Shown: positions 7,093 through 21,575 of the stretch, one piece after another | Layout: each line of letters opens with the position of its first letter | How positions within the stretch are numbered: position 1 is the stretch's first letter | Virus record (IMG/VR): IMGVR_UViG_2917870735_000002 | DNA: 31,520 bases | DNA from: a virus | Lineage: Duplodnaviria; Heunggongvirae; Uroviricota; Caudoviricetes | Strand: one strand, 5' to 3' | Notes under the pieces: model-generated | What the model was told of the DNA's origin: nothing | What the model saw: only the letters and a program-made list of their open reading frames with translations | The model's database searches: none | Made by a program: the position numbers and the translations under genes

Positions 7093-7114
7093 CACTATTG
7101 CTTGTGGGGGCTAA

Positions 7115-7321
7115 ATGGATCTTTTGGAGGCGTCGGCACAGCTGGAACGCATTGAGTTATTAGCTAAAATTGCCCATGATTACGAAAGTAACCAGAGAGA
7201 AAAAACAATCGCTTTGGCCTGGATTGGAGAACTTGCGGAAGAGGTTCACAAAATGGTTAGAAAGGAAGGGAAAAGCCCTCATTCTGGGGGCTTTTTAGGC
7301 AGCGGGAGTCACTTTCAGTAA
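7115..7321 (+). CDS. hypothetical ORF (68 aa), doubtful
   Basis: ATG 7115 with weak GTGGGGG upstream; 3' end overlaps the convergent ogr-like gene by 27 nt. May be non-coding. Confidence 0.25.
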   Translation: MDLLEASAQLERIELLAKIAHDYESNQREKTIALAWIGELAEEVHKMVRKEGKSPHSGGFLGSGSHFQ

Positions 7322-7564
7322 ATCTAATGCTACCTGGCGCTGAGCGGGAGAAAGTGCACTCAGTATTTTTTGCACCACCGCATCACCCGTTTTAGCGCTG
7401 GGGCTGAGAGTGTGGGAAAATGTCAGATTCATAACAAATGTGTGGCCACATTCAACATCTGAACAGGCGCAGTAAATATCTGCAATTTGCCGATGCTTCC
7501 TGTTCGTTTTACGAATAACAGCCTTTGAGCCGCATTCCGGGCATTCGATTTTCAGAACTCGCAT
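7295..7564 (-). CDS. ogr: late gene transcriptional activator, Ogr/Delta zinc-finger family (89 aa)
   Basis: In-frame ATG at 7564 (MRVLKIECPECG...), GGAG about 11 nt upstream. Cys pattern CPEC ... CACSDVEC matches the C4 arrangement of P2 Ogr/186 B as I recall. About 17 aa longer at the C-terminus than the 72-aa P2/186 proteins. Confidence 0.8.
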   Translation of the reverse strand: MRVLKIECPECGSKAVIRKTNRKHRQIADIYCACSDVECGHTFVMNLTFSHTLSPSAKTGDAVVQKILSALSPAQRQVALDLLKVTPAA

Positions 7565-7614
7565 ATTCCATGCTCCAGCTGTTAAATGAAGCATGGATTT
7601 TAGCCAGTTTCGCA

Positions 7615-8676
7615 TCATGCCGCACCTTTATCTATTGATTCTATGTAACTTAAATCAAAGTTTAGGTGCAACCTTTCCGGTATTTCGGGATCGTTGTTTA
7701 CGGCCAGCATGAAACGGCGCTGGATGGGGGCAATTTCGCTTTTCTTATAAATGCGTTCAGCCTTTTCAACATCCCCCAGTCCGGCAGTGTTCTGCGGGAC
7801 AATACCGGCGAGGCCGGCAGGGAAACGGTGCGCGTTCAGAATATCCTGGGCGCTGATGTTCTTGATGTTGGCAAATTCATCCTTAGCAGAAATATCACCC
7901 ATTTCAATGAATTTGATGGCGTCGCCGTCTCCACCGGGAATGTTTACAAGGATGGTGGAGAAGTTCCCGATCCCTTTGCTGTCACGCAGCTGCTGTTCAA
8001 TTTCTTCCTCCATTTCGTCCGTCATGCTGGGATCGCGGGTATAAAGAATTCCGCCTGTGTGTGCACCGTTGTGGTAGTAGCGGCGTCGGAAAATGACCGC
8101 TTCACTGTTAAGTAACGCGGAATGCACACCGCCGATGTAGTCCGGCAGTCCGTAGATATGCTGTTGAGGGTCATACATTTTGATAAAGATAATATCTTCT
8201 TCTGGCCATATCTGCGGTTCCCCTTCCTGTAACACTACGTAGTCACCGGGCTTATCCAGGGCGTTATCTCTGACTTTGCGGCGGCGTATATACAGACCGG
8301 GTAAGGGTTCAAGTGCGATCACGTCTCCCCAGCCGTTACGAATTTTGGCAATCGCAATATCCCCAAAGGTTATATAGTCATACGCTGCCGCTTCCAGCTG
8401 GTCGTGAATAAGTCCGCCACCCAAGTAATCTGAAACAATCATGTTTTTGCGGGCGTGAATGATGCCGCCGTGCTGACCGTTAAGATTAATCAGCTGTGCG
8501 AGTGCCAGCCGGTCAATCGGCTGGGTGAAGTGATCGGCGGCATTGTCGTACCAGATATCACGGTAATCTGTGCCGGTAGTCAGAACCGGTTCAGGTTTGC
8601 CGAATGTGATAATGCTCATCTTTTTTGATTTGTCGCCGCGCTGGTCGCGCTTAACAAAGCGTTTCTTTTTACTCAT
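7615..8676 (-). CDS. Q: portal protein (P2 gpQ family)
   Basis: 353 aa; conserved blocks (GLPDYIG...LNSEAVIFRRRYYHNGAHTGGILY; DILNAHRFPAGLAG...GDVEKAE) match P2 Q from memory. Start ATG overlaps terminase stop (ATGA). Confidence 0.92.
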   Translation of the reverse strand: MSKKKRFVKRDQRGDKSKKMSIITFGKPEPVLTTGTDYRDIWYDNAADHFTQPIDRLALAQLINLNGQHGGIIHARKNMIVSDYLGGGLIHDQLEAAAYDYITFGDIAIAKIRNGWGDVIALEPLPGLYIRRRKVRDNALDKPGDYVVLQEGEPQIWPEEDIIFIKMYDPQQHIYGLPDYIGGVHSALLNSEAVIFRRRYYHNGAHTGGILYTRDPSMTDEMEEEIEQQLRDSKGIGNFSTILVNIPGGDGDAIKFIEMGDISAKDEFANIKNISAQDILNAHRFPAGLAGIVPQNTAGLGDVEKAERIYKKSEIAPIQRRFMLAVNNDPEIPERLHLNFDLSYIESIDKGAA

Positions 8677-10448
8677 GCAGCCTCTTTCCTTACACCCCAG
8701 CGGGATTTAGGTTTGTTTTCATAGTTAAGGGGTTCGTTATGCAGACCGTGGGTAATCGCCCAGAACGCCTCCGCGTGGCCAGTATCCTGGCTGCGGTCAG
8801 CGACAAACGTCATGGCGTTGCCGCTTTGTGTGGTGGTTCGGCGCACAGACATAAAGCTGGCAGCGATCTCTTTCAGGTTTTTATCCCACTCAATACGTTG
8901 GCTTTCCACCACGTCCACCGCTTTCAGCACCAGTTGATTTTTGGTGTTCAGGTCGTAACGAATAGGGACGGCCACGCGCATGGCAAAATGCTGAATGTTG
9001 TCAAAAACACCTTGGCCAATGCCGGTAACGTCCACACCCAGATAAGTGAAGTTGTATTTTTTAACCAATTGCTCGATCTGTTTTGCCTGGTACCGGAAGT
9101 TCATGCCTTTCCAGTAAATCACCTTCAGAACGCGGAATTTCTCCACGGCGAGTATCGGCGGTGCGATGATGACAAAACAGGACAAATCACCGCTGCGAGC
9201 CGGGTCAAAGCCACCCCATACCGGCCTGTCACCAAATGGCCGCGCTGCATCAGGGTTGTGATCCTGCCAGGTGTCGATTTCAACACCGCAGGCTTCCAGA
9301 TCGGAAAAGCTGAAAACGGAATCTTTGCTGTCAACGAACACGCACATATAGAGCATGTTAAAAGTGGCGTCGTTGTAGCGGTTGCGAAGTTTCTCGATGT
9401 TCGCCAGGTTGAAACCGCCCGCAATGGCATCTCCCATCGTAATGACGTAGCGCCATTGCCCATCCGGGCAGAGTCGCCCGCCGTCACGCATTTCGTTAAA
9501 GGACGGAAACTTAATGGCCGCACGTTTTTTACTGCCTTGTTTCCACTCATCGCCCGTCCAGAACGGGTAAGCCTGGTGCGTTTTTGCCGATGGCGTTGAA
9601 AAATAGGTGATGCGCCACTTGTCATGTGTGGCCATTGCGCTGGCCACTTCGTTAAGTTTTGCAAAGTTTGGCACCCAGAAATATTCGTCACAGTACAGGT
9701 GGCCACTGTAGGACTGGGCGGTGTTTTTGTTGGTGGAGAGAAAACGCAGTTCTGCGCCGTTGCTTAAGCGGATCGGGTTGCCGGTTAGCGTAATACCGAA
9801 ATACTGCTCTGCAATATTCACGATGTAAGACCGGAACACTTCAGCCTGTGCTTTTGACGCTGACAGAAAGATTTGCGGATCGCCGGTCATCACCGCATTT
9901 TCAAACGCTTCAAACGCAAAATACCAGGTCGCACCGATCTGGCGGCTTTTCAGGATGTTCCTGACAAGCTGGCCAATGTTATTGCGCAGGTGTTTCTGAT
10001 ATTCAAAAAGATGTTCCTCAGCCCATGCGTCAAAGTCCTCCTGCGTCAGCGACGTAATATCGTTTTTCTTGTATTTCCGTTTGCTGCGTGGTTCGTCGTC
10101 ATTGTTGCCCCGCGCAGCTGCTTGCCCGGAACTCTGACCGCTGGCCATTTTCTCTTTGTGTTTATTACTCTGCGCACGCAGTTTCGTGGCATGAGCAATG
10201 AGCATGTCCATTTCTTTCAGGTCGAGATCGGTTTTGTTATCGCGGCTGGCCAGCAGCTGGTAACGGCGTTCAATTGCTTCCTCTGTGCTTTCAAAACTGA
10301 GCAAATCCGCCCAGCTGTATTTCTCCGCCCAGTAGTAAATGATCCGCGCATTCGGCAGATTTAATTCAGATGCGATTTCCTTTGGCGTATAGCGGCGCAG
10401 ATAAAGTGCGCGAACAACGCCTTTTAATTCTTCAGAGTATTTAGCCAT
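8673..10448 (-). CDS. P: terminase large (ATPase) subunit, P2 gpP family
   Basis: 591 aa, same length class as P2 gpP; divergent from O/N/M/L exactly as in P2; coupled to Q. Confidence 0.88.
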   Translation of the reverse strand: MAKYSEELKGVVRALYLRRYTPKEIASELNLPNARIIYYWAEKYSWADLLSFESTEEAIERRYQLLASRDNKTDLDLKEMDMLIAHATKLRAQSNKHKEKMASGQSSGQAAARGNNDDEPRSKRKYKKNDITSLTQEDFDAWAEEHLFEYQKHLRNNIGQLVRNILKSRQIGATWYFAFEAFENAVMTGDPQIFLSASKAQAEVFRSYIVNIAEQYFGITLTGNPIRLSNGAELRFLSTNKNTAQSYSGHLYCDEYFWVPNFAKLNEVASAMATHDKWRITYFSTPSAKTHQAYPFWTGDEWKQGSKKRAAIKFPSFNEMRDGGRLCPDGQWRYVITMGDAIAGGFNLANIEKLRNRYNDATFNMLYMCVFVDSKDSVFSFSDLEACGVEIDTWQDHNPDAARPFGDRPVWGGFDPARSGDLSCFVIIAPPILAVEKFRVLKVIYWKGMNFRYQAKQIEQLVKKYNFTYLGVDVTGIGQGVFDNIQHFAMRVAVPIRYDLNTKNQLVLKAVDVVESQRIEWDKNLKEIAASFMSVRRTTTQSGNAMTFVADRSQDTGHAEAFWAITHGLHNEPLNYENKPKSRWGVRKEAA

Positions 10449-10502: not shown

Positions 10503-10527
10503 GTTCGGTAAAGCGTTATAACCGAAC
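10503..10527. promoter_or_regulatory. dyad GTTCGGT-N11-ACCGAAC in divergent P/O late promoter region
   Basis: 7-bp perfect inverted arms, 11-bp spacer, in the 161-bp gap between P and O starts. Not the TGT-N12-ACA Ogr-site pattern I recall for P2. Confidence 0.35.
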
Positions 10528-10609
10528 TGTTCAGAATAAAGCGTAATGCGGTGGCGGTTTTATTTGGCAATAATTGATTTGCAGCGTCAGGGAGTGGAAC
10601 AGGGGGGAT

Positions 10610-11413
10610 ATGTCACATTTAAAAACTGACTGGCTGTGTGTTGCTACTGAAGGGGATACCGTTGATGGCAGGGTAATTAAACGGCAGTGGATCATTGATA
10701 TGGGGGAAACCTATGACTATAGCCACTATGTCGCTTTAATCTGGCCAGAACATGAGGATGATTGCGGGAATTTTGGTGAAGTGCTGGAAGCCACCTGGAA
10801 TGATGGTGAAGATGGACAGGCACGGTTATATGTCAGCCTTTGCCCGAATATGCGTCTGATTTTCGCAAATCATGAAGATCAGCTTTTGTTCTTCTCCATT
10901 GAGCCGGAAGATAACTGGCGCGGTAGCGGGCGTACTTACCTGAAAGGGCTGGCGGTAACAGATACACCTGCCAGCGTTGGCACCACACGGCTGCGCTTTA
11001 GTAGTCGGCGCAATAAATTAACAAAGCAGGGATATTACAGCTGTGTAATTTCCCGCGACGGAAAAATTAAACAGGAAGCAAGAATGAAGAACTGGCAGAA
11101 ACTGTTTGGTATTAAGCCAAAGTTTGAAGATGAAACGACGCAGGATAATCTTGCTCCGGATGAAGATAAATTACAGGCGCTTGCCAATGTGGTGAACGAT
11201 CTGGAAGCGCGAGTGGCGAAAATTGAAACTCAACTGAATGACGTTCAGGGTGATGTTGACACAATTGCTGAAGTGGTGGATACGCAGGAATTTGCGGCAA
11301 TTCGCGATAATGCAAAAGAAATCGTAACCCGCTTTAACGAACTGGGTAATAAAAACACCCGTACACCGGGGCGTACTATAAAAGATAAAGCCGGGAAATT
11401 TAATTTCCTGTAA
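10610..11413 (+). CDS. O: capsid scaffolding protein (P2 gpO family)
   Basis: Track ORF from 10574; ATG 10610 gives MSHLKTDWLCVATEGDTVDGRVIKRQ, matching P2 O N-terminus (VEGDTCDGRVI) as I recall, plus GLAVTDTPAS block. Long purine-rich G-run upstream. Confidence 0.82.
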   Translation: MSHLKTDWLCVATEGDTVDGRVIKRQWIIDMGETYDYSHYVALIWPEHEDDCGNFGEVLEATWNDGEDGQARLYVSLCPNMRLIFANHEDQLLFFSIEPEDNWRGSGRTYLKGLAVTDTPASVGTTRLRFSSRRNKLTKQGYYSCVISRDGKIKQEARMKNWQKLFGIKPKFEDETTQDNLAPDEDKLQALANVVNDLEARVAKIETQLNDVQGDVDTIAEVVDTQEFAAIRDNAKEIVTRFNELGNKNTRTPGRTIKDKAGKFNFL

Positions 11414-11475
11414 TTCGCTTTATTGCTAATTAGCCCAGAATATATTTTTAAATCGCTTAATTGCGAGGGAGTTTT

Positions 11476-12498
11476 ATGCACCTTAATAATCGTGCGCGGG
11501 ATTTACTGGATAAATATTCGGCGGGGATGGCGCAGCAGTTTGGTGCGCGTGATACCAGTCGATATTTTTCCCTGAATGACCCACAGGAAAATGCGCTGCG
11601 TCTTGCGTTGCTGGAGTCCGTCGAGTTCCTGAACATGATCACCTGTCTGGATGTTGACCAGCTGAGTGGCCAGGTGATCTCTGTCGGTTCCTCTGTGCTG
11701 CATACCGGCCGCAGCGAAAATGGCCGTTTCATTCGTCAGGTAGGCGTTGACGGTAATGACTATTCCCTGGTTGAAACAGACAGCTGTGCCGCGTTGCGCT
11801 GGGATCTGCTTTCTGTCTGGGCAAACGCCGGTAAGGACGAAAACGAGTTTTACAACCTGGTACAGGCATTCACCACGCAGGCTTTTGCGCTGGATATGTT
11901 GCGCATTGGTTTTAACGGTAAAAGTCGCGCGAAAACCACTGATCCGGAAACTAACCCGAACGGCGAGGATGTGAACGTTGGCTGGCATGAGCGTATGAAA
12001 ACGCTGCTGGGCGGCAATCAGATTATGACGGATGCCGTGGTGCTTGATGAGGCCGGGGATTACAAATCACTGGATGCAATGGCGTCCGATCTGATTAACG
12101 CCAAAATCCCGGCACAGTTCCGCAATGACCCGCGTCTGGTTGTTCTGGTTGGTGCCGATCTGGTCGCAGCTGAACAATACCGACTGTATCAGGCAGCAGA
12201 CCGTCCGACTGAAAAAATCGCGGCGCAGATGCTGGGAAGCACCATTGCTGGCCGTCCGGCTATTATCCCGCCGTTTATGCCGGGTAAACGCATGGTGGTT
12301 ACGCCGCTTTCTAACCTGCACATCTACACCCAGCGCAATACCCGTATGCGTAAGGCGGAGTTTGTTGAAGATCGTAAGCAGTTCGAAAACAAATACCTGC
12401 GCAATGAAGGTTACGCGGTGGAAGTGCCGGAGCTGTATGCGGCTATTGATGAATCCGCTGTGACAATCGGCAAAGTCTCCGAACCGGTGGAGGGTTGA
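11476..12498 (+). CDS. N: major capsid protein (P2 gpN family)
   Basis: Track ORF starts at TTG 11461; ATG 11476 with GAGGGAG upstream. Blocks IGFNGKSRAKTTDPETNP, VGWHERMK, GDYKSLDAM, DPRLVVLVG parallel P2 N from memory. Confidence 0.9.
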   Translation: MHLNNRARDLLDKYSAGMAQQFGARDTSRYFSLNDPQENALRLALLESVEFLNMITCLDVDQLSGQVISVGSSVLHTGRSENGRFIRQVGVDGNDYSLVETDSCAALRWDLLSVWANAGKDENEFYNLVQAFTTQAFALDMLRIGFNGKSRAKTTDPETNPNGEDVNVGWHERMKTLLGGNQIMTDAVVLDEAGDYKSLDAMASDLINAKIPAQFRNDPRLVVLVGADLVAAEQYRLYQAADRPTEKIAAQMLGSTIAGRPAIIPPFMPGKRMVVTPLSNLHIYTQRNTRMRKAEFVEDRKQFENKYLRNEGYAVEVPELYAAIDESAVTIGKVSEPVEG

Positions 12499-12501
12499 TA
12501 A

Positions 12502-13203
12502 ATGGCACTTTCCCCCGCGCAGCGTCACAGCCAGCGTATTGCGATGGAACAAAAGCTGAAGCGCAGCCAGGCACTGGAAACCACGGAAAGTATGCACCTG
12601 CTGGTCAGGGCGCTGGAAACTGATGTGGAATATATTCGAAGTCTGCCTACCATCGCCGAGCGCGTCGAGGACAAACGCAATGTGCTGTTGCCGCGCTGGG
12701 TTCCCACTGTGGAAGCCTATCTGGAGAGTGGCCAGGAGTATGCAAATCCGGTTTTCGCCTGGTGTGTTATCTGGCTGTTTGACGTGGGCGATCTGGATAA
12801 GGCGCTGGACTGGGCTGACATTGCTATCAGCCAGCAGCAGGCAACCCCGGATCGGTTACGCAGCAATTTTCCCACTTTCGTGGCGGATACGATGCTGGCA
12901 TGGGCGCAGGAAACCGCAGGGCGCGGGGAAAGTGTGGAGCCTTATTTCACCCGCACGTTTGAGCGGGTGGCAAACACCTGGCGACTGCATGAGCAGGTGA
13001 CGGCCAAATGGTTCAAGTTTGCCGGTCAGGAGTTGCTACGCAATGACGATGGCCAGAAAACGGCGGCGGGTGTGGATGATATTGAAACGCTGGAAAAAGC
13101 CGATCAGCTGCTGGCTATTGCAGAAAAACACTACTCAAAAATTGGCGTCAAAACGGCGCGGCAGACAATTGCCGCCCGTATCCGAAAACTGACTCAAGGG
13201 TAA
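12502..13203 (+). CDS. M: terminase small/endonuclease subunit (P2 gpM family)
   Basis: 233 aa; N-terminus MALSPAQRHSQRIA resembles P2 M (MTSPAQRH...); 3 bp after N stop. Confidence 0.8.
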   Translation: MALSPAQRHSQRIAMEQKLKRSQALETTESMHLLVRALETDVEYIRSLPTIAERVEDKRNVLLPRWVPTVEAYLESGQEYANPVFAWCVIWLFDVGDLDKALDWADIAISQQQATPDRLRSNFPTFVADTMLAWAQETAGRGESVEPYFTRTFERVANTWRLHEQVTAKWFKFAGQELLRNDDGQKTAAGVDDIETLEKADQLLAIAEKHYSKIGVKTARQTIAARIRKLTQG

Positions 13204-13248
13204 AGACTACCGCAAGCCAGGCGGACGCGGTGGAGGGCAGAACACCTT

Positions 13249-13752
13249 GTGTGTAACTGCGCCGTGGAAACCGGCCAGTCCGCCTTTTTCGGGGGATTTA
13301 TGTTTAGCGGAAAGCCGCTGGATTATCAGGATGAACCGCTGTCCAATAACGGATTCTGGCCAGATCTGAATCTGAAGGATTTTCAAGCGCAGCGGTCACT
13401 ACCGCCAGATATTGACGCTGACACCATCAGCCAGGCGTTGCTTGCAGCGGTGGCGGAGGTGAATGCGGAGCTGGAAAACGTGGAGTCCAGTTGGATAGCG
13501 AAAGGCTACACGCTGGCGGCAGAGGTACCAGGTGTAAAAATGGGCGGACTGAACAGCCTGTGCGCCCAGTATATGAAGGCCGTTTTTGCCAGGGCAAAAG
13601 CGGATCTGCTGGGGGAGTTCGCCACTATCGGGCGGCGCGATACTCATCCGGGACAGGAAAGTATGGAAACCCGAGCGGGGTTACTGGCTGAAGCATCGGT
13701 GGTGATCCGCCGTATGAAAGGGCTGAAACGGGCAACGGTGAAAAAAGTATGA
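13249..13752 (+). CDS. L: head completion/stabilisation protein (P2 gpL family)
   Basis: 167 aa from GTG 13249 (GGAGGG upstream); alternative ATG at 13300 with GGGGG upstream. GFWPDLNLKDF resembles the P2 L FFFPDIDPK block; length matches the 169-aa P2 L from the GTG start. Confidence 0.7.
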   Translation: MCNCAVETGQSAFFGGFMFSGKPLDYQDEPLSNNGFWPDLNLKDFQAQRSLPPDIDADTISQALLAAVAEVNAELENVESSWIAKGYTLAAEVPGVKMGGLNSLCAQYMKAVFARAKADLLGEFATIGRRDTHPGQESMETRAGLLAEASVVIRRMKGLKRATVKKV

Positions 13753-14255
13753 GCCAGACGCAGATCCAAAGCCTGACCACATTTTTTAAAGATAACGTCC
13801 CGCCCCGTGCGATGCAGTCATTTGACAGTGTGCTGGATGAGATGAAGTTCATCCCTGCGGCGAAGGATTACGGGCTGGGACAATATCGCCAGGCGGTTAT
13901 CCGATATGACGCGGTTCTGAGCTGGGAGCGTTTCCCGTATCGCCTTTGCCCGCCGCAGTTGCTTATGTCCTTACTGGCTGCGTGGCTGGATGATGCTGAC
14001 AGGGAACTAGTGGATGAAGTGGGGCTGAGTGAAGCTGAACCTGACTGGGATGTGTCGGTGGAGGATGAGGAAGTGGCCACTGTGGTGCTGACTGTTCCGA
14101 TGGTAGAAGAACTGGTGATCAGGCAGGACGAAAACGGGGCTATTCCGTGGCGGGGTGAGCGCTGGTCACTGGTTGAGCCTGAAATCTGGACGGCACTGAC
14201 CGCCAGTATTTACAGCGTGGATGAGGCCGGTGCGCCGGTGGGGGATAGCGAATGA
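13749..14255 (+). CDS. putative head-tail joining / tail completion protein (168 aa, acidic)
   Basis: ATG overlaps L stop (ATGA); located between head completion and virion morphogenesis genes. Function by position only. Confidence 0.45.
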   Translation: MSQTQIQSLTTFFKDNVPPRAMQSFDSVLDEMKFIPAAKDYGLGQYRQAVIRYDAVLSWERFPYRLCPPQLLMSLLAAWLDDADRELVDEVGLSEAEPDWDVSVEDEEVATVVLTVPMVEELVIRQDENGAIPWRGERWSLVEPEIWTALTASIYSVDEAGAPVGDSE

Positions 14256-14956
14256 TTGCTGGTGGCGAGCTGAATAAAAAACAGCTGGCCGAATTGCGCA
14301 AGGCACTGGCCAGCATGGAGCTGCCGCCGAGAAAACGGCAGCGTCTGATCTGGCGTCTGGCCAAATATGGCGTGATTGCTGCGGCAAAACGGCATGTGCG
14401 CAATCAGGAATCCCCGGATGGCAAGTGGCCGGGACGTAAGACAAAACGCAAAGGGAAGATGCTGCGCAACCTGCCAAAGCTGCTGCATATCCGTGAAATG
14501 CCAGAAATTCAGGCTGTGCGGATCTATTTACAGGGTGGTGGATACCGGAACGGGGAAGCGCCGGTACCAGCCGGAACGGTGGGGTACGCGCAACAAAACG
14601 GAATGCGCGTAAAGGTCAGCCGCAGTAATCAGCCACGGAAGGCAGAGGCCGGGAAAATGGCGACGCCTGCCCAGGCCAAAAAATTACGGGCGCTGGGGTA
14701 CCGGGTGAAAACCGGTAAGAGATGGAAAAAGCCCACACTGGGCGAAATCACCAAAACGATGCCATACAGCCAGTCGGGGCTGCTGATTCGAAAACTCAGT
14801 AGTAAAGCCGTGAAAACCAGCTGGACAGTGGATCTTCCTGCTCGTGTGTTTCTGGGCATGAATGATGATGAATTTGACAAGGCGCTGGCGCGTCAGCTTC
14901 AGGCCATCGGCTTTGGCTGGGACGTTAAGGCGCAGGATATTAAGGGGAAAGCATGA
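14252..14956 (+). CDS. phage virion morphogenesis protein (P2 gpS / Mu G-like family)
   Basis: 234 aa, basic; RKRQRLIWRLAKYGVIAAAKRHVRNQESPDGKWPGRK resembles the virion-morphogenesis family signature as I recall. ATGA coupling to upstream gene. Confidence 0.55.
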   Translation: MIAGGELNKKQLAELRKALASMELPPRKRQRLIWRLAKYGVIAAAKRHVRNQESPDGKWPGRKTKRKGKMLRNLPKLLHIREMPEIQAVRIYLQGGGYRNGEAPVPAGTVGYAQQNGMRVKVSRSNQPRKAEAGKMATPAQAKKLRALGYRVKTGKRWKKPTLGEITKTMPYSQSGLLIRKLSSKAVKTSWTVDLPARVFLGMNDDEFDKALARQLQAIGFGWDVKAQDIKGKA

Positions 14957-16080
14957 CCTGGCCAATTGTGACCGTAAACCAGGTAAATCAGCTGATGGGT
15001 GAAACCAATGAGGTGGAACGCACACTGCTGTTTATCGGCACGGGTACCAAAAATGTGGGGAAAACGCTGGCGGTGAATGCCCAGAGTGATTTTGATTCAC
15101 TGCTGGGCGAGGAAGCCAGCCCGCTGAAAAATGATGTTCTGGCTGCGCTGGCGAACGCTGGCCAGAACTGGTGGGGGTTCATTCACGTCCTGCCAGCTGA
15201 CGCGGAGGCGGACGCCTGGGTGAAAGCGGTTTTAGCCGCGCAGGTGGTGTGCTCTGTGGAAGGCGTGGTGCTGTCTGACGATGTCACTGCTAAAGCGCAA
15301 GTAAATCAGGCAGTGACGTTACGAACCACCCTGATTTCAAAGTATGGCCGCTGGGTGTGGTTCATTCTGGCCGCACAGGGAGTGCAGGACGAAGAAGCCC
15401 AGGCTGATTACTTGGTTCGCTTGGCCACTCTTCAGGATGGGGTTGCAGAAAAGTCGGTTCAGTTGGTTCCCCGGCTGTGGGGAAATGAACCGGGTGTGCT
15501 GGCTGGTCGTCTGTGTAGCTGTATGGTGACTATTGCAGATAGTCCGGCGAGGGTTAAAACCGGTGCGCTGATGAATTTGGGCAGTGACGAAATGCCGGTT
15601 GATGGTACCGGAGAAGTTCTTGAGTTGGCCACACTTCAGGCGCTGGAAGCACAGCGTTTCAGTGTGCCAATGTGGTACCCGGATTATGACGGTTTTTACT
15701 GGTCAGATGGCCGCACGTTGGACGTTGAGGGCGGCGATTATCAGTCGATTGAAACTTTGCGCGTCGCGGATAAAGCTGCCCGCCGTGTTCGTTTGCTGGC
15801 TATCAGTAAAATCGCTGATCGTTCGCTGAATAGCACGCCAGGAAGTATCGCCGCACATCAGACACTGTTCGCCAGTCCACTGCGCGAAATGTCTACTGCG
15901 GCCAGCATTAATGGGGTGTCATTTCCCGGAGAAGTGAAGCCGCCGCAGGATGGTGATGTATCCATTGTCTGGAAGAACAAAAAGGCAGTTGATATTTACA
16001 TTGTGGTACGTACCTGGGAAGTGCCACTGCAAATCACCATCAGCCTGTTACTGGATGCCAGTCTGGAGGCTATAGCATGA
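14953..16080 (+). CDS. putative contractile tail sheath protein
   Basis: 375 aa, immediately followed by a coupled 151-aa gene and upstream of chaperone and tape measure; size close to P2 FI. Assignment positional; sequence does not obviously match P2 FI. Confidence 0.5.
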   Translation: MTWPIVTVNQVNQLMGETNEVERTLLFIGTGTKNVGKTLAVNAQSDFDSLLGEEASPLKNDVLAALANAGQNWWGFIHVLPADAEADAWVKAVLAAQVVCSVEGVVLSDDVTAKAQVNQAVTLRTTLISKYGRWVWFILAAQGVQDEEAQADYLVRLATLQDGVAEKSVQLVPRLWGNEPGVLAGRLCSCMVTIADSPARVKTGALMNLGSDEMPVDGTGEVLELATLQALEAQRFSVPMWYPDYDGFYWSDGRTLDVEGGDYQSIETLRVADKAARRVRLLAISKIADRSLNSTPGSIAAHQTLFASPLREMSTAASINGVSFPGEVKPPQDGDVSIVWKNKKAVDIYIVVRTWEVPLQITISLLLDASLEAIA

Positions 16081-16532
16081 CCAAACGTATTTCAGGTATG
16101 TCGTTTGACACTTATATGGATGGCGAACTGATCCATATCGAGAAAATTACGCTCGATATTACGGATAACAGCGTTGCCGCCCAGACGCGTGGCGTCCCTG
16201 ATGGGTATGTAGATGGCGATGTTGCCGCCGAAGGGGAGATTGAAGTCAGTTCAAAAACTCTTCAGGTGCTGACAACCAAAGCCCGCGCAGCGGGTTCATG
16301 GCGCGGACTTCCACCACTTGATTTTCTTTTCTATGCCAAAGCCAGTAGCGAAGAAATGAAGGTGGAGACGTTCGGCAATAAATTGCAGGTCAGCAACCTG
16401 CTGGATATTGATCCGAAGGGGGGCGGCGTGACCACGCACAAAATCAAATATTTCGTGACCAGTCCTAAATTCGTCAACATTAACGGTGTGCCGTATCTGG
16501 AAGCGGAAGCTACAGAAAACCTGATCGGATAA
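16077..16532 (+). CDS. putative tail tube protein
   Basis: 151 aa, ATGA-coupled to the sheath-like gene; size in tail-tube range. Positional assignment. Confidence 0.5.
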   Translation: MTKRISGMSFDTYMDGELIHIEKITLDITDNSVAAQTRGVPDGYVDGDVAAEGEIEVSSKTLQVLTTKARAAGSWRGLPPLDFLFYAKASSEEMKVETFGNKLQVSNLLDIDPKGGGVTTHKIKYFVTSPKFVNINGVPYLEAEATENLIG

Positions 16533-16542
16533 GGACATCGCA

Positions 16543-16845
16543 ATGCAAGAACATGAAAAGAGTCTGTATTCACTGCTAGTTATTGGGGGATTGATTGCTG
16601 TCGGCAATGTGCTGAACAGCAATGACCCGATTACGCCCCGCCTGTTTGCTGGCCGTGTGATCCTGGGCAGTCTGGTTTCTGTGGTAGCAGGGACGGCGTT
16701 GATTCAGATCCCGGATGCCAGTCCGCTGGCCATTCAGGGGCTGGGGGCTGCGTTAGGGATCGCTGGGTATCAAGCGGTGGAAGTGTGGCTGCGCAGGCGT
16801 GCTGTGGGAAAGCAGGATGGGAGCAAAAATAATGACTCTCAGTGA
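16543..16845 (+). CDS. holin
   Basis: 100 aa; ATG 16543 with AAGGA upstream; three hydrophobic segments then charged tail RRRAVGKQDG; directly upstream of endolysin. Confidence 0.65.
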   Translation: MQEHEKSLYSLLVIGGLIAVGNVLNSNDPITPRLFAGRVILGSLVSVVAGTALIQIPDASPLAIQGLGAALGIAGYQAVEVWLRRRAVGKQDGSKNNDSQ

Positions 16846-17236
16846 AAAACAGCAATTGTTTACTGTCATGGTGGCCAATCTGATCCTCTGGGCAGAAGAA
16901 CATGGCTACCGACTGACATTCGGTGAGGCTTACCGTACACCAGAACAGGCTGCGCTGAACGAGAAGAAAGGCAGTGGTATTCCTAACAGTCTGCACACCC
17001 AGCGGTTGGCGGTGGATTTCAATCTGTTCGTGAACGGTCAGTACAAAACCCGTACAGAAGATTATCAGCACTGGGGGAATACTGGGAATCACTGGGTGGT
17101 TCCTGGGGCGGACGCTTCAAATCCAGACCTGATGGTAATCATTTCAGTCTGGAACATAACGGGGTGCGCTGATGAGCAGCGGGCAGTGGTTGGTTGTGGT
17201 GGCGCTGGCGTTTGTCTGGGGCTGGCTAACCGCTGA
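16832..17236 (+). CDS. endolysin, peptidase M15-like (134 aa)
   Basis: ATG 16832 with GGGAG 8 nt upstream (track ORF from GTG 16799). H-x6-D motif (SLHTQRLAVD) and downstream His (GNHW) consistent with M15 zinc peptidases. Confidence 0.68.
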   Translation: MTLSEKQQLFTVMVANLILWAEEHGYRLTFGEAYRTPEQAALNEKKGSGIPNSLHTQRLAVDFNLFVNGQYKTRTEDYQHWGNTGNHWVVPGADASNPDLMVIISVWNITGCADEQRAVVGCGGAGVCLGLANR

Positions 17237-17510
17237 CTGGCGGCGTGATAGCTTAGAGCTGGCAATCAATACAGCGGCGCAGGTGGCCGGTAATGAATCG
17301 CGAAAAGCAATGCAGGGTATTGCCAGTGATTCGGCCAGAGCGCTGGAAGATAAACTGGAGGCGTTAAAAAATGTGGCACCGCGAGAGATACGCACTGAAG
17401 TGCTTAAGCCTGTTTTTACCAGTCGTTGCCTGTCTGATGAGTTTGTCAGCATGTACAACCGTGCCGCAACCGGTACCGAACGTGCGTTATCAGGAAAATC
17501 TGAAAACTAA
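17172..17510 (+). CDS. i-spanin (Rz-like)
   Basis: 112 aa; N-terminal TM (WLVVVALAFVWGWLTA) followed by charged helical periplasmic region; overlaps endolysin 3' end and contains the o-spanin start. Confidence 0.65.
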   Translation: MSSGQWLVVVALAFVWGWLTADWRRDSLELAINTAAQVAGNESRKAMQGIASDSARALEDKLEALKNVAPREIRTEVLKPVFTSRCLSDEFVSMYNRAATGTERALSGKSEN

Positions 17511-17670
17511 ATGTGCCACGCAGTTGCCGCGCCTGAATGGTGCGACAGGAAAAGACTCAGCGGAATTACTGACGATTTATCTTGAGTTATATGGTCAGTG
17601 TGCTGCACGTCATAATCAGTTAGTGGATGAAATTATTTTAAGAGAGAGAGTTATTGATGGAACAAATTAA
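17371..17670 (+). CDS. o-spanin (Rz1-like lipoprotein), partly embedded in the i-spanin gene
   Basis: 99 aa in a different frame from the i-spanin; signal peptide with lipobox LSAC (Cys at residue 28); ATG 17371 with GGAG 10 nt upstream. Overlapped architecture like P2 lysB/lysC. Confidence 0.6.
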   Translation: MWHRERYALKCLSLFLPVVACLMSLSACTTVPQPVPNVRYQENLKTKCATQLPRLNGATGKDSAELLTIYLELYGQCAARHNQLVDEIILRERVIDGTN

Positions 17671-17914
17671 ACTGTGTGTTTGTGGTGTTGAAATTATTTT
17701 TGAACCAAACCAGACTGCCTACAATAAATTTATTAATGAAATGGCAATGGACAATAAGGTTGCTCCTGCGCATAACTATCTGACACGAATTGTTGCGATT
17801 GAAAGTAAAGCCTCACTTTGTGAAGTATTAAATCGTCCGGGTGCTGCACTTCAACTGGTTGGCAAAGTAAATGATATTTATGCGCCTGAACTAGAAATTG
17901 AAGTAAAAAACTGA
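17657..17914 (+). CDS. tail assembly chaperone (P2 gpE-like), short form
   Basis: 85 aa from ATG 17657 (GAGAGAG upstream); immediately upstream of tape measure; LNRPGAALQLVG resembles the RPG block of gpE as I recall. Ends in slippery heptamer A AAA AAC (17905-17911). Confidence 0.55.
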   Translation: MEQIKLCVCGVEIIFEPNQTAYNKFINEMAMDNKVAPAHNYLTRIVAIESKASLCEVLNRPGAALQLVGKVNDIYAPELEIEVKN

Positions 17915-18105
17915 CAAAGCGAGTCCATGAAATTGAAATGAATGGACTCGAACAATATTTAATTCTACGCCGTCATTATTTACCACATGGTCAGGATTCC
18001 GTTGATGATATCGCCGCCGCTATCTGGCTGGACAATCGTCACTGGGAATATACGGGAATAGCTGTGGCCAATGGTGTGGCAAAAGCATTTAAAGGCAGTG
18101 AATGA
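17657..18105 (+). CDS. tail assembly chaperone, predicted -1 programmed frameshift fusion product (E+E'-like)
   Basis: The -1 frame is open from 17902 to stop 18103-18105 and overlaps the short form only across A AAA AAC. Extension reads KKLTKRVHEIEMNGLEQYLILRRHYLPHGQDSVDDIAAAIWLDNRHWEYTGIAVANGVAKAFKGSE; its TGA overlaps the tape measure ATG (ATGA). Confidence 0.4.
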
Positions 18106-19292
18106 AACAATTAGATTTTACATTAAGCCTGATTGATAAATTATCCCGCCCGTTAAAACAGGTGCAAGGTAACGTCACCGGCTTTGCGGAAAAATCAAAA
18201 GCAGCCTTTATGCAGATCGGTGGTGGCGTTCTGGCGCTGGCAGGTATCGGGATGGAGATCAAAAGTGCTTTATCACCGGCAATTGAAATGTATGACGCGC
18301 TGAATGATGCCGCCGCAAAAGGTATTGATGATTCGGCACTTAAGACAGTTCAGCGTGATGCCCTGCGCTTCAGTACAACCTATGGTGCCAGTGCGGTGGA
18401 GTTTGTTAAATCCACGGAAAATATTAACGCTTCCATTGCCGGACTGACGGGTAATGAACTGCCGAAGGTGACGAAAGTCGCCAATACCCTGGCTTTTGCG
18501 CTCAAGTCCACAGCGGCGGACACGGCGGAATTTATGGGGCAGATGTTCGGTAACTTTTCCGCCGATGCCACCAGACTGGGCAAGGTTGAATTTGCCGAGC
18601 AGCTGGCAGGCAAGATGGTTTATATGCGCAAAACCTTTGGCACAGAAATGGCCACTATCAAGGATTTGATGGAAGGTGCGCGCGGCGTCGGGACTAACTA
18701 CGGCGTGGGACTGGATGAACAACTGGCCGTGCTGGGGCAACTTCAGCGGACGCTGGGAACAGAAGCCAGCAGCGCCTATGAAGGGTTTATGACCGGCGCG
18801 GTTGATGGCGCTAAAAAGCTGGGGCTGTCCTTTACTGACTCCACCGGCAAAATGTTGTCCATGCCTGAAATGCTGATCAAGTTGCAAGGCAAATATGGCA
18901 AAAGCCTTGAAGGGAATCTGAAAGCCCAGGCGGAACTGGATGCAGCCTTTGGTAACAGTTCTGCAGTGGTTAAACATCTTTACGGCAATGTCGCGTTACT
19001 TCAGCGGAACATCACCGAACTGGGCAGTACGGACGGCCTGAAGCGTACCCAGGAAATGGCACAAAAAATGGTTAAGCCGTGGGATCGCTTTGTACAAATC
19101 CTGAAAGCCATTCAGACCGTGATCGGACTGACGCTGATCCCGGTGCTGTATCCGGTTCTGAATCGCCTGGCTGATATGGGGCAGACCTTTGCTCGTTGGA
19201 TGCAGTTATTTCCTAACATTGCCCGTGTGATTGGTTATGCGTCGGTGGCACTACTGAGCTTTGCCGCCGTGGGTGCGGTTGCAATATCGTGA
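18102..19292 (+). CDS. tail tape measure protein, N-terminal ORF
   Basis: 396 aa, Ala/Gly-rich helical with hydrophobic C-terminal segment; directly follows chaperone. Confidence 0.7.
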   Translation: MKQLDFTLSLIDKLSRPLKQVQGNVTGFAEKSKAAFMQIGGGVLALAGIGMEIKSALSPAIEMYDALNDAAAKGIDDSALKTVQRDALRFSTTYGASAVEFVKSTENINASIAGLTGNELPKVTKVANTLAFALKSTAADTAEFMGQMFGNFSADATRLGKVEFAEQLAGKMVYMRKTFGTEMATIKDLMEGARGVGTNYGVGLDEQLAVLGQLQRTLGTEASSAYEGFMTGAVDGAKKLGLSFTDSTGKMLSMPEMLIKLQGKYGKSLEGNLKAQAELDAAFGNSSAVVKHLYGNVALLQRNITELGSTDGLKRTQEMAQKMVKPWDRFVQILKAIQTVIGLTLIPVLYPVLNRLADMGQTFARWMQLFPNIARVIGYASVALLSFAAVGAVAIS

Positions 19293-20068
19293 TGGGGGTA
19301 TCCAGATTCATCATGATGGGATTACGTGGGATCTGGGGGGCGTTAACGGCGGTTACGAAAATCTACACGGCGACTGTCTGGCTGGCGCAAATGGCGGTAA
19401 TCGCCTGGAATACCACGCTGAAGTTTTTACGCGGCGCGTTACTGGCGGTACGCATGGCCGCAATGATGACCGGAATTGGTATCAATCTGATGAGCTGGCC
19501 AATCCTGCTTGTGATTGGTGCCATTGCGCTGCTTGTTGCTGGTTGTTATCTGCTGGTTAAGCACTGGAACACGATAAAAGCATCGGTGATGAATACCGAA
19601 GCCTTCCAGGCATGTGCTGCCGTAGTGAAATGGCTAGCGGGGATCTTTGTTTTAGCCTGGCAATATGTCAGTGATGGATGGAACAGTTTTATTTCTATGC
19701 TGACAGGATTTTCACCATCTGAGGCATTAAATGGAATGGCCACCGGTATTATGTCACTGTTTGATATTGTCTGGAACTCAATCAAAGAGGGATTTCTTAA
19801 GTCGTGGAACTGGATTGTTCAGAAACTGAATGAAATTCCCGGCGTGGATATTTCTCTGGCGAGTGAAACCTTACAGCCGTTAACTGGTAATACGCTGTCT
19901 ACGGGGGGCGATTTAAAAGGTGTGGATAATGGCGGTATCAGTAAAACAATCAGCAGCAACACAACATCCGTAATCGATAACAGCCGGAAAATTGGTGAAG
20001 TGCATTTCCATACCAAAGAAGCATTATCTCCACTCCAGCTTATGGAATGGCAGGAGCTTGGTGCATGA
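19292..20068 (+). CDS. tape measure protein C-terminal portion, or separate hydrophobic tail protein
   Basis: 258 aa from ATG 19292 (track gives GTG 19289); -1 frame relative to preceding ORF, joined at TGATG; multiple hydrophobic segments typical of tape-measure central regions. Confidence 0.55.
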   Translation: MGVSRFIMMGLRGIWGALTAVTKIYTATVWLAQMAVIAWNTTLKFLRGALLAVRMAAMMTGIGINLMSWPILLVIGAIALLVAGCYLLVKHWNTIKASVMNTEAFQACAAVVKWLAGIFVLAWQYVSDGWNSFISMLTGFSPSEALNGMATGIMSLFDIVWNSIKEGFLKSWNWIVQKLNEIPGVDISLASETLQPLTGNTLSTGGDLKGVDNGGISKTISSNTTSVIDNSRKIGEVHFHTKEALSPLQLMEWQELGA

Positions 20069-20394
20069 GTAATATTCTTTATATTGATTTGCTGATTCAG
20101 GGCGGTGATTTTGTTCTGAATACCGGTAATGAACCTGAATTATGTAATAACCGAAAAAGTATCGGACAGGACATTATTCATTCCATTATTGAAAGTGGTT
20201 TGGCTACGGAATTAATAGCCGAACGTAGCCCGACAATGAGAGCGGATATTTTTACCCGTATGGAATTACTGATTGAATATGATGAACGCATTGTGCCAGG
20301 TACGGTGGAAATCAGTGAAGAAAGTCAGAAGCGGCTGTGGGTAACCGCGAGTACATACGATTTTGGTGGGATCTCTGCGCAGGTGGATTTATGA
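20065..20394 (+). CDS. putative baseplate assembly protein (gpW position, 109 aa)
   Basis: ATG 20065 overlapping upstream stop (ATGA), GGAG 9 nt upstream; immediately precedes baseplate J-like gene. Confidence 0.45.
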   Translation: MSNILYIDLLIQGGDFVLNTGNEPELCNNRKSIGQDIIHSIIESGLATELIAERSPTMRADIFTRMELLIEYDERIVPGTVEISEESQKRLWVTASTYDFGGISAQVDL

Positions 20395-21575
20395 CGGAAA
20401 AACCGCAGGTCGATTTTGAAGAAGTGGTGAAGGACAGCGGTATGCCGGTAACGGAATCCGAAGTGTGGGAACACTTCAATGCGATTGCAGCGGATGAGGG
20501 AATTATCACCAATACATCCCGAATGTCACCGTTCTGGCGATTAATCACCGCCATTGTGACCGCTCCTGTGATGTGGCTGAAAGACGTTCTGGTATTGACC
20601 GTGCTGGCTAATATGTTTGTGGCAACGGCCAGCGGGAGCATGTTGCGTCTGCTGGCCTGGGCTGTGAACGTCACGGCAAAACCGGCGAGCGCTGCACAGG
20701 GGGTGATCCGCTTCTTCAAAGAAGATGCAAAGGCCGTTGTGACGGTGAAAGCCGGGACGGTTATCCAGACAGAACGCATTAACGGGCGAGTTTATGAGCT
20801 GGCCACCACTGAAGATGTGGTGATCGCTTCCAGTGCAGCCAGCGCATTACTGCCGGTGCAAGCCACTGGTACCGGGGGCGCTTATAACCTTGCGCCTGGA
20901 TACTACCGCATTCTGCCGGTGGCGGTCAGTGGTATCAGCCATGTGGCCAGTGAGGAAAACTGGCTGACCGTGCCGGGAGCTGACGAGGAGAGCGATGATG
21001 AACTGCGCGAGCGTTGTCGCAATCAGTTCAATCTGGTGGGGAATTACCACACTGATGCGGTTTATCGCTCAATGATCGCCAGCGTTGCTGGGTTGAGTAT
21101 CGATAGGATTTTCTTTGAGCATGAAGCACCGAGGGGACCTGGAACAGCAAACGCATTTCTATTGCTGGATAGTGGGGTGACCTCGGCACCGTTCTTGGAT
21201 GCAGTGAATGACTATATCAACACCCAGGGGCATCACGGACATGGTGATGATATGCAGTGTTATCCCATTCCGGAAACGTTTCACGATCTGGCCGTTACGG
21301 TTTATGTCGAGAATCTGAATAATTTCAGCGATGAGGAAAGGAAAAGCCTGAAGGATGGCGTTGAAAACATTATCCGCTGCGCTTTTCGTGAAAATGCTGA
21401 TTTTGACGTCAGAAAGACGTGGCCATATTCACGGTTTTCATTTTCGCAACTGGGGCGGGAAATTCATAAAACCTTTGCACAGACGGAATCACTGACATTT
21501 TCGCTCGGAGACATTACTAGTGAACTGGGCGTGCCGCGTCTGAAATCACTGACGGTGAATATTGATAATGAATGA
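20391..21575 (+). CDS. baseplate assembly protein J-like
   Basis: 394 aa from ATG 20391 (overlaps upstream stop); position W-J-I-fibre as in P2; size in range for baseplate J family. Confidence 0.6.
   Translation: MTEKPQVDFEEVVKDSGMPVTESEVWEHFNAIAADEGIITNTSRMSPFWRLITAIVTAPVMWLKDVLVLTVLANMFVATASGSMLRLLAWAVNVTAKPASAAQGVIRFFKEDAKAVVTVKAGTVIQTERINGRVYELATTEDVVIASSAASALLPVQATGTGGAYNLAPGYYRILPVAVSGISHVASEENWLTVPGADEESDDELRERCRNQFNLVGNYHTDAVYRSMIASVAGLSIDRIFFEHEAPRGPGTANAFLLLDSGVTSAPFLDAVNDYINTQGHHGHGDDMQCYPIPETFHDLAVTVYVENLNNFSDEERKSLKDGVENIIRCAFRENADFDVRKTWPYSRFSFSQLGREIHKTFAQTESLTFSLGDITSELGVPRLKSLTVNIDNE

Follow-up and report, generated by a model that had tools for sequence, protein, structure and literature searches.

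A gene order flagged as mosaic is the published standard layout of HP1-branch phages in the P2 family

The window (the whole stretch of 31,520 nt that was analysed, IMG/VR record IMGVR_UViG_2917870735_000002) was annotated by profile searches (Pfam and PHROG), from which the gene identities in Table 1 derive. As seen in Table 1, the head genes Q-P and O-N-M-L are followed by an R-like terminator, an S-like completion protein, sheath, tube, holin, M15-type endolysin, overlapped spanins, a chaperone with a -1 extension and the tape measure, and 13749–18105 are exact ORF boundaries. An earlier note on this DNA had described the lysis genes as lying between tube and chaperone, the head genes as Q, P, O, N, M and L, and an Ogr-like gene as adjoining Q (between A and Q, on the portal strand); ORF coordinates and profile searches confirm the order, and Pfam matches confirm the head genes and the Ogr-like gene.

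Table 1. Features of the head, tail and lysis regions (positions in the window; identities are between proteins)
Feature	Coordinates	Strand	Evidence
Ogr/Delta-like zinc-finger late activator, predicted	7295..7618	-	PF04606 E=9.7e-20, phrog_603
Portal (P2 Q homologue)	7615..8676	-	PF04860; 49% to HP1 Q, 33% to P2 Q
Terminase large subunit (P2 P homologue)	8673..10448	-	PF03237, PF17289, PF06056; 51% to HP1/K139, 41-42% to P2/186
Perfect dyad GTTCGGT-N11-ACCGAAC	10503..10527	.	Divergent P/O control region, upstream of P
Capsid scaffold/protease (P2 O homologue)	10574..11413	+	PF05929 E=4e-36
Major capsid (P2 N family)	11461..12498	+	PF05125 E=6e-99
Terminase small subunit (P2 M homologue)	12502..13203	+	PF05944 E=5e-38
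Head completion (P2 L homologue)	13249..13752	+	PF05926 E=2e-38, phrog_71
Tail terminator (P2 gpR family)	13749..14255	+	PF06891 E=2e-22, phrog_65 (P2 R's PHROG)
Tail completion/Neck1, P2 gpS-like ('virion morphogenesis')	14252..14956	+	phrog_26 E=5e-31 (P2 S's PHROG)
Contractile tail sheath, HP1 type (DUF2586)	14953..16080	+	PF10758 E=7e-134, phrog_907 'tail sheath'
Tail tube, HP1 type	16077..16532	+	PF10772 'Phage_HP1_Orf24' E=6e-63, phrog_1182
Holin, P2 gpY family	16543..16845	+	PF04550 E=4e-39
M15-type peptidase endolysin, disrupted	16832..17172	+	PF13539 (Peptidase_M15_4) E=3.7e-11, repaired protein
i-spanin (Rz / P2 LysB-like)	17172..17510	+	phrog_1152 E=4e-34
o-spanin (Rz1 / P2 LysC-like), overlapped	17371..17670	+	PF23793 LysC E=1.4e-6, phrog_456
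Tail assembly chaperone (P2 E analogue)	17654..17914	+	PF10963 E=6e-34
Slippery heptamer A_AAA_AAC (17905-17911), then 66-codon -1-frame extension (P2 E+E' analogue)	17905..18105	+
DUF6890 ORF, -1 frame	17938-18105	+	PF21830 E=3.5e-24
Tape measure	18102..20068	+	PF10145, phrog_28

The window has a single divergent control region between P and O, with P, Q and ogr leftward and about 16.7 kb of same-strand genes without large gaps rightward (the series from O to the tape measure in Table 1, then baseplate and fibre genes). Gene spacing and strand suggest a single long operon, in support of which no promoter or terminator call was reliable; the lysis genes, placed between tube and chaperone, would then share a transcript with the tail genes. 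The late genes would be switched on by the Ogr/Delta-type protein encoded beside Q, whose translation shows a CxxC...CxxxxC motif and shares 57% identity with K139 orf13 and 92% with the regulator of Escherichia phage ESSI2_ev015 (translation may really begin at the ATG at 7564, giving 89 aa as in the ev015 annotation). The canonical P2 Ogr site, TGT-N12-ACA, was searched for in the P/O region and is absent, so the target of the activator can only be inferred. The dyad in this region is a candidate operator of the Ogr-like activator: it matches exactly once in the window, and its core, TTCGG-N13/14-CCGAA, is present a single time in each of the genomes of ev015, ESSI-2, K139, phiO18P, YenM324 and SMHB1, always in the P/O region. 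The L homologue probably starts near 13300; PGAP annotates a 150-aa version in an E. coli relative.

Among the tail proteins, the gpS-like protein has no Pfam match and is 29% identical to HP1 orf22. The sheath shares 51% identity with HP1 orf23 and 80% with that of ESSI-2 (modelled as a one-domain sheath, PMC9230969), and has no match in P2 or 186. The tube (58% to HP1 orf24) belongs to a Pfam family named after that HP1 protein, and the chaperone is 40% identical to HP1 orf26. The heptamer and the -1 extension are conserved in eight phages, including ev015, ESSI-2, HP1, SI7, phiO18P, phi3 and an E. coli prophage; by analogy with P2 E/E+E', a longer chaperone product would be made by -1 frameshifting at A_AAA_AAC.

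In the lysis cassette, the holin has two to three hydrophobic segments, shares 54-57% identity with P2 Y and 186 orf24, and has no match in HP1 or K139. The i-spanin has an N-terminal hydrophobic stretch (QWLVVVALAFVWGWL), and the o-spanin, which contains the lipoboxes VVAC and LSAC, overlaps Rz by 140 nt and runs 160 nt past the Rz stop. The endolysin ORF as encoded has no Pfam match; its M15 assignment is obtained only after repair of a 1-nt deletion near 17069 (relative to ev015 and an E. coli prophage), downstream of which the ORF runs out of frame to 17236. By the same comparison, a 1-nt deletion near 19282 splits the tape measure into ORFs of 396 aa and 259 aa. An independent Logan assembly, made from run SRR6156173 and 100% identical over window positions 15102–21437, has the tape measure lesion too, although it may derive from the same isolate; the two deletions may be either real or shared read errors. 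With lesions in the endolysin and the tape measure, the prophage is probably defective, unable to lyse its host or to build tails.

The closest named relatives are Escherichia phages ESSI2_ev015, ev129 and ev040 (Quadragintavirus, Peduoviridae; Mathieu et al. 2020, PMC6969025), which share the gene order from int to baseplate, 93-94% nucleotide identity over 86-91% of a 24-kb query, late proteins at 76-99%, and the holin, M15 endolysin, spanins, chaperone and tape measure. According to megablast (query 7000–31000), ev015 matches 91% of the query at 93.6% identity; the one-way nucleotide similarity of the window to ev015 is about 83.5%, under the 95% species line. The three phages differ from the window in right-end cargo and in the two frameshifts, and ev015 differs further in its diverged int (57%), cI (71%) and cox (66%) and in a DNA methylase beside A, which the window lacks. 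Cronobacter phage ESSI-2 (Seongnamvirus ESSI2) shares the layout, late proteins at 52-90%, an endolysin of the M15 type and a reading frame for a P2-type holin, but is of another genus, with about 76% nucleotide identity over only 43% of the query. The annotated gene order of both ev015 and ESSI-2 is that of the window, and 25 complete E. coli genomes contain the region at coverage of at least 80%. A cos site and a right-hand attachment site were looked for in the window and not found.

The resemblance to HP1 that the earlier note had pointed out is correct. All 23 window proteins with a match in HP1 (Haemophilus, Hpunavirus) and all 25 with a match in K139 (Vibrio, Longwoodvirus) keep their order and orientation, giving the shared layout int-cI-cox...rep...ogr-like-Q-P, then O-N-M-L-R-S-sheath-tube-holin-endolysin-spanin-chaperone-tape measure-DUF2590-J-I-fibre; at the position of the ogr-like gene, K139 has orf13, a zinc-finger regulator. 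The differences from HP1 and K139 are a protein identity of only 25-60%, other holin and endolysin families, and early genes nearer 186. Twelve well-described ICTV genera of Peduoviridae, among them Hpunavirus, Longwoodvirus, Seongnamvirus and Quadragintavirus, have L followed by terminator, Neck1, sheath, tube, lysis genes, chaperone, tape measure, DUF2590 and baseplate J, in this order. P2 (Peduovirus) and 186 (Eganvirus) share with the window the head order and head Pfam families, the R, S and J PHROG families, the holin family, LysB/LysC-like overlapped spanins, an Ogr/Delta activator, a CI/Apl/CII switch of the 186 type and a chaperone extended by -1 frameshifting. In contrast, their lysis genes sit after L-X and before R-S, an F operon of its own, placed after the fibre genes, carries their sheath, tube, E, T, U and D, their ogr/B lies after D beside att, and their endolysin is not M15.

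The flagged gene order is therefore ordinary: it is the standard layout of the HP1 branch, already published and seen here in a close relative of Escherichia ESSI2-like phages. We are highly confident that the window holds a prophage of the HP1 group of Peduoviridae, lying beside host mntS and belonging to an ESSI-2-like lineage (genus level with Quadragintavirus), with 13749–18105 as the canonical late operon of that group; no evidence contradicting the HP1-group classification was met. HP1-like viruses are described as sharing six capsid genes in P2 order and having dissimilar tail genes (PMC2771037); the HP1/P2 tail split and a lysis module among the tail genes are both reported in PMC10612066 (whose Table 2 assigns Seongnamvirus to the HP1 group), and for K139 and Smhb1 an ogr flanked by the portal and replication genes is reported (PMC8537503).

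The deep tail divergence between HP1 and P2 is likewise a published observation at subfamily level (PMC2771037, PMC10612066) and not a feature of this window. Time-trees of portal and sheath have led to the proposal that one of the two Peduoviridae branches took up a much older paralogous tail module (PMC10612066), in which case every HP1-group phage, this one included, would be mosaic in deep time. The sheath, tube, chaperone, W-like and I-like proteins belong to PHROG families other than those of P2 FI, FII, E, W and I, and the head genes share Pfam families with P2, as such a replacement would have it; however, R, S and J remain in families common with P2, and faster divergence of tail genes fits the same data and is indistinguishable with the tools used. 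We regard the replacement as a serious possibility, somewhat short of an even chance; being a property of the whole group, it is compatible with the standard HP1-group layout.

The earlier note had read the region as P2/186-type heads and switch joined to a different tail module, that is, as a recent recombinant, and its interpretation overall is partly supported. The holin identities given above, early genes nearest 186 (int 62%, cI 40%, cII 44% and A 46%, versus 30-51% to HP1) and tail proteins with no tblastn match in P2 or 186 speak for such a fusion. The heads, however, are at 34-51% identity to HP1/K139 versus 27-42% to P2/186, and the tail proteins, which match only HP1-group phages, are likewise nearer HP1/K139, so the heads and tails of this genome do not differ in ancestry. 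Searches with the capsid and with the sheath lead to the same neighbours (outside the ESSI2 phages, the capsid is nearest to HP1-group phages of Aeromonas and Vibrio, at 46-55%, versus 27% for P2), collinearity with HP1 and K139 extends over the whole genome, and the R, S and J families held in common with P2 mark the tail as a diverged homologue rather than an unrelated import. With the layout common to twelve genera, a recent fusion is very improbable. Two frameshifts in neighbouring genes could hint at an artefact of assembly or prophage calling, for instance a chimeric contig, but this is even less credible, given the identical Logan assembly, the 25 E. coli genomes and the same order in sequenced virions of the ESSI2_ev phages (PMC6969025).

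We propose that the layout was passed on vertically within the HP1 group and that only the contents of the lysis slot were swapped. Real module exchange is confined to two places, the lysis slot and the early region. The early/lysogeny region is closest to 186, which bears out the 186-type switch of the earlier note, and a 186-type lysogeny module is described in PMC8537503. The lysis slot holds a P2-type holin and an M15 peptidase instead of the HP1-type holin and lysozyme of HP1 and K139, and the earlier note's view of an endolysin unlike P2 gpK, acquired by module exchange, holds for this slot, with the caveat that the gene is frameshifted in this copy. The slot is variable across the group, with PF16080 and PF00959 in HP1 and K139, PF05106 in phiO18P, and PF04550 with PF13539 in SI7 and the window.

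We compared 45 ORFs of the window by tblastn with the P2, 186, HP1 and K139 genomes. All 23 proteins that match HP1 and all 25 that match K139 keep the order and orientation they have there, and the lysis cassette is likewise placed between the tube and chaperone genes; this bears out the resemblance to HP1 drawn in the earlier note. The HP1 order is int-cI-cox-...-rep-...-Q-P, then the divergent O-N-M-orf20(L), followed by orf21-orf22-orf23(sheath)-orf24(tube)-hol-lys-orf25-orf26-orf27(tape measure)-orf28...orf35. P2 and 186, in contrast, have the lysis genes after L-X and ahead of R-S, the sheath and tube genes set apart as an F operon that comes after the fibre genes, and ogr/B after D, adjoining att. 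The window does not follow this organisation, since R, S, sheath and tube come after L, the lysis genes come after the tube, and ogr lies beside Q. The block L / terminator / Neck1 / sheath / tube / lysis / chaperone / tape measure / DUF2590 / J was found in twelve genera: Quadragintavirus (Escherichia phage ESSI2_ev015, ev015 in the following), Seongnamvirus (ESSI-2), the genera of HP1 and K139, Irrigatiovirus (SI7), Bielevirus (phiO18P), Phitrevirus (phi3), Tresduoquattuorvirus (vB_YenM_324), Irtavirus (F108), Playavirus (SMHB1), Vulnificusvirus (PV94) and Catalunyavirus (C5a). The gene order that the earlier note took as a mosaic is standard in twelve P2-family genera, which is the finding named there as refuting that reading; the observation itself is confirmed, and its interpretation is supported only in part. 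The architecture is one already known from the HP1 group, carried here by a relative, new at the species level, of Quadragintavirus phages already described. An order that seems strange beside P2 is the textbook one for the sister HP1 lineage, in which tail-embedded lysis cassettes are the norm, and it makes a calibration point: P2 is not the sole reference architecture for Peduoviridae. We note that the sheath gene (DUF2586) of vB_YenM_324 (OM095401, 6501-7640) is labelled 'topoisomerase' in GenBank, an evident misannotation.

Gene identities were taken from an ORF map and profile searches against Pfam and PHROG, listed in the table below. Every gene that the earlier note had named is borne out by them, and the stretch 13749-18105, in which it had placed the junction, falls exactly on gene boundaries. 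The P2-family head module is present, with Q and P on one strand and O-N-M-L divergent on the other. There is a single divergent P/O intergenic region, and from O as far as 27262 every gene is on one strand, separated from the next by no more than about 50 nt; the lysis genes would be co-transcribed with the tail genes. A promoter and terminator scan of 6900-20400 gave fewer promoter-like sites than shuffled sequence and about as many terminator-like ones, and was set aside for the definition of operons. The i-spanin has a hydrophobic N-terminus and the o-spanin has the lipoboxes VVAC and LSAC; the o-spanin gene overlaps Rz by 140 nt in a different frame and continues 160 nt past the Rz stop, the overlapped two-component architecture of P2 LysB/LysC.

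Features of the window, with the profile match or other basis of each assignment
Feature	Coordinates	Strand	Basis
Host DNA, mntS side	1-306		
Integrase			PF00589
bPH_3 + SHOCT protein	1341-1979		
CI			PF07022 + PF16452
cox/apl ORF	2563-2844		Position and 66% identity to ev015 cox only
CII			PF06892
Ogr/Delta zinc-finger gene	7295-7618	minus	PF04606, E=9.7e-20
Portal Q	7615-8676	minus	PF04860
Large terminase P	8673-10448	minus	PF03237 + PF17289
P/O dyad	10503-10527		GTTCGGT-N11-ACCGAAC
Scaffold O	10574-11413	plus	PF05929
Capsid N	11461-12498	plus	PF05125
Small terminase M	12502-13203	plus	PF05944
Head completion L	13249-13752	plus	PF05926
gpR-family tail terminator	13749-14255	plus	PF06891
gpS-like completion protein	14252-14956	plus	phrog_26
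Sheath	14953-16080	plus	DUF2586
Tube	16077-16532	plus	Pfam family named 'Phage_HP1_Orf24'
Holin	16543-16845	plus	PF04550
Endolysin	16832-17172 (as encoded, out-of-frame ORF runs to 17236)	plus	
i-spanin	17172-17510	plus	phrog_1152
o-spanin	17371-17670	plus	PF23793
Tail chaperone	17654-17914	plus	PF10963
Slippery heptamer	17905-17911		A_AAA_AAC
Small DUF6890 ORF, -1 frame	17938-18105	plus	PF21830
Tape measure	18102-20068	plus	
DUF2590, baseplate J, I-like protein, fibre, fibre chaperone, two unknown proteins		plus	
Hub/spike-like protein	end at 27262	plus	
Low-GC cargo	27317-31520		33-45% GC
Hexapeptide-repeat acetyltransferase	27317-27913		
Hexapeptide-repeat acetyltransferase	29475-30101		

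A further claim was that P2/186-type heads had been joined to a tail module of other ancestry. Between head and tail this genome is not such a mosaic, as the head identities and the neighbours of capsid and sheath point to the HP1 group alike (see the second table). Searches of all phage records with the capsid and with the sheath returned the same neighbours, ESSI-2-like phages first and next Aeromonas, Vibrio, Pasteurella and Haemophilus phages 29-38 kb in size; capsids of P2 type reached only about 27-31% in the capsid search. The tail proteins include a sheath, tube, chaperone and DUF2590 protein of HP1 type. By tblastn they share 25-60% identity with those of HP1 and K139 (29-60% with HP1); against P2 and 186 the one match was in the C-terminal third of the fibre chaperone. 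R, S and J belong to the PHROGs of their P2 namesakes (phrog_65, 26 and 6), and the sheath, tube, chaperone, W-like and I-like proteins fall in PHROGs different from those of their P2 counterparts. By its profiles the tail is related to the P2 set, though diverged from it, and is not an import. These features of the architecture (the HP1 group, the deep tail split, the ogr position and the variable lysis genes) are already published: 'HP1-like viruses' were defined by Lavigne et al. 2009 (PMC2771037), the HP1/P2 split has been documented to go far deeper in the tail genes than in the head genes (PMC10612066, with the HP1 group in its Table 2), and a K139 and Smhb1 ogr homologue located between the portal gene and the replication gene, a lysogeny module of 186 type, and a holin and endolysin not conserved among close relatives have all been described (PMC8537503). 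PMC13100340 contains nothing on gene order.

Identity of window proteins to their counterparts (tblastn of window ORFs)
Gene	HP1	K139	P2	186
int	51%	40%	38%	62%
cI	30%	29%	none	40%
cII	none	25%	none	44%
A	39%	34%	36%	46%
Q	49%	45%	33%	33%
P	51%	51%	42%	41%
O	34%	51%	34%	34%
N	34%	48%	27%	29%
M	39%	39%	30%	28%
L	39%	41%	32%	29%

What stands of the mosaic interpretation are two modest signs of exchange, one in the early region and one in the lysis slot. The 186-type lysogeny module int-cI-cox/apl-cII is present in that order, and the early region is, by these identities, closest to 186, a real if modest sign of exchange. Immediately upstream of A, ev015, ESSI-2 and an E. coli prophage carry a DNA adenine methylase gene (4943-5808 in record L007); the window, at 4921-5001, is without it. 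The variable content of the lysis slot is likewise a real, modest sign. Here HP1 and K139 have PF16080 with PF00959, phiO18P has PF05106 and an inserted methylase, phi3 has PF00959, and SI7 and the window have PF04550 with PF13539. The window holin shares 54-57% identity with P2 Y and 186 orf24, and neither HP1 nor K139 has a match to it. Beyond ESSI-2-like, Yersinia or Salmonella relatives, the nearest kin of the endolysin are found in non-P2-family Aeromonas, Pseudomonas and Vibrio phages. As encoded, the endolysin ORF has no Pfam match and its DGNHF motif is out of frame. With the frame repaired, it matches PF13539 (Peptidase_M15_4; E=3.7e-11), and SLHTQRLAVD and DGNHF can both be read in it; the motifs sought for this family were an N-terminal H-x6-D and a C-terminal D-x-x-H (zinc and catalytic). 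By this match and these motifs the endolysin is of M15 ancestry. A PDB sequence search with the repaired protein gave one relevant match, the Listeria phage L-alanyl-D-glutamate peptidase 2vo9, and a weak one (E=0.37) that was given no weight.

Megablast of 7000-31000 against phage records gave ev015 at 93.6% identity over 91% (ev129 and ev040 were similar) and ESSI-2 at 76%, and the RefSeq annotations of ev015 and ESSI-2 show the same genes in the same order as the window. One-way BLASTN aligned 91% of the prophage length to ev015, and 83.5% of the prophage's bases were identical. Under the ICTV criteria (a genus threshold of about 70% nucleotide similarity across the genome; a species line of 95%), the prophage falls within the genus Quadragintavirus, which has three species, and would be a different species from ev015 (83.5%, below the 95% line). 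Sequence, annotation and classification of near-identical phages already exist; the ESSI2_ev phages were reported by Mathieu et al. 2020, with Escherichia albertii or Citrobacter suggested as their source (PMC6969025), and the sheath of ESSI-2, to which the window sheath is 80% identical, has been modelled as a one-domain contractile sheath (PMC9230969). A related region is present in 40 of 5,426 complete E. coli genomes (25 at >=80% coverage). In E. coli CM2010-0578/1 a related prophage lies between mntS and mntR, and PGAP lists there, in the same order, 'M15 family metallopeptidase', 'ogr/Delta-like zinc finger family protein' and 'DUF2586'. The host DNA at the left end of the window matches that strain at 98.7% identity from mntS as far as the integrase start; mntR and the right attachment site are absent from the window. 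A comparison of the left end with the right-end cargo for attachment-site repeats gave just a 12-mer at chance level, and no cos sequence was identified in the window; the linear ESSI-2 and ev015 records have their ends between int and the baseplate genes, no more than a hint as to cos.

Two mildly useful leads are a conserved dyad upstream of P and the inactivated look of this prophage copy. The Ogr-like protein has the four cysteines of an Ogr_Delta zinc finger in translation (CPEC...CACSDVEC), and in K139 the zinc-finger regulator orf13 is likewise encoded on the portal strand, with rep on one side and Q on the other. In HP1 (NC_001697), an unannotated reading frame at 10447-10635 (minus), just downstream of Q, is 41% identical to the window protein; the second zinc-finger half is kept (CACKNPLCGH), with no obvious first CxxC. 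The P2 Ogr site TGT-N12-ACA is not found in the P/O intergenic region of the window, and elsewhere in the window it has 5 matches against 9.1 expected by chance. The same intergenic region contains a perfect dyad. The genomes of ev015, ESSI-2, YenM324, K139 (15489-15512), SMHB1 and phiO18P each have a single copy of its core, TTCGG-N13/14-CCGAA, and it lies in their P/O region (in phiO18P overlapping the annotated O start). The distance between the P start codon and the start of the dyad is 56 nt in the window, ESSI-2, YenM324 and K139 and 48 nt in SMHB1. HP1, SI7 and F108 have degenerate versions, and the core is absent from P2 and 186. This dyad is a candidate operator for the Ogr-like late activator, which would activate the divergent late promoters. 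We propose only tentatively, and with more doubt than belief, that the Ogr/Delta-like activators of the HP1 group recognise an operator of their own, TTCGG-N13/14-CCGAA, instead of the P2 site. If the dyad is an operator, one bidirectional control region would drive both the P-Q-ogr operon, with positive feedback on the activator, and the ~16.7 kb morphogenesis operon with its embedded lysis genes.

The tail chaperone gene ends in GTA AAA AAC TGA, within which lies a canonical slippery heptamer; an extension of 66 codons in the -1 frame comes after it and overlaps the start of the tape measure gene. The heptamer and a -1 extension of 62-66 codons are conserved in eight HP1-group phages. These sequence features match the -1 frameshift pairs lambda G/GT and P2 E/E+E', and the chaperone gene would yield a similar pair of products by -1 frameshifting. 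In most relatives, including HP1, ev015 and K139, the extension is unannotated or given as a separate small ORF.

A 22-kb alignment with ev015 and the E. coli prophage contains exactly two out-of-frame coding indels, both 1-nt deletions. One, near 17069 in the endolysin gene, puts the C-terminal DGNHF motif off frame, and the ORF enters the Rz gene; the other, near 19282, splits the tape measure gene into ORFs of 396 and 259 aa. Both lesions are present in an independent Logan assembly of SRR6156173, which is 100% identical over 15102-21437. Rescue of the endolysin and tape measure by programmed frameshifting was rejected, since neither lesion site has a slippery heptamer and the relatives have intact single ORFs. 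Because neither site is slippery, the prophage is probably defective, and the two lesions suggest that it was recently inactivated.

The low-GC cargo at the right end encodes, besides the two acetyltransferases, two small unknown ORFs and a 411-aa ORF that has no Pfam or PADLOC match and whose start codon is the window's final base. PADLOC gave no match for any of the cargo ORFs. At the other end, the bPH_3 + SHOCT protein is encoded between int and cI, the place occupied by glo in K139. The genes at both places may serve lysogenic conversion or exclusion.
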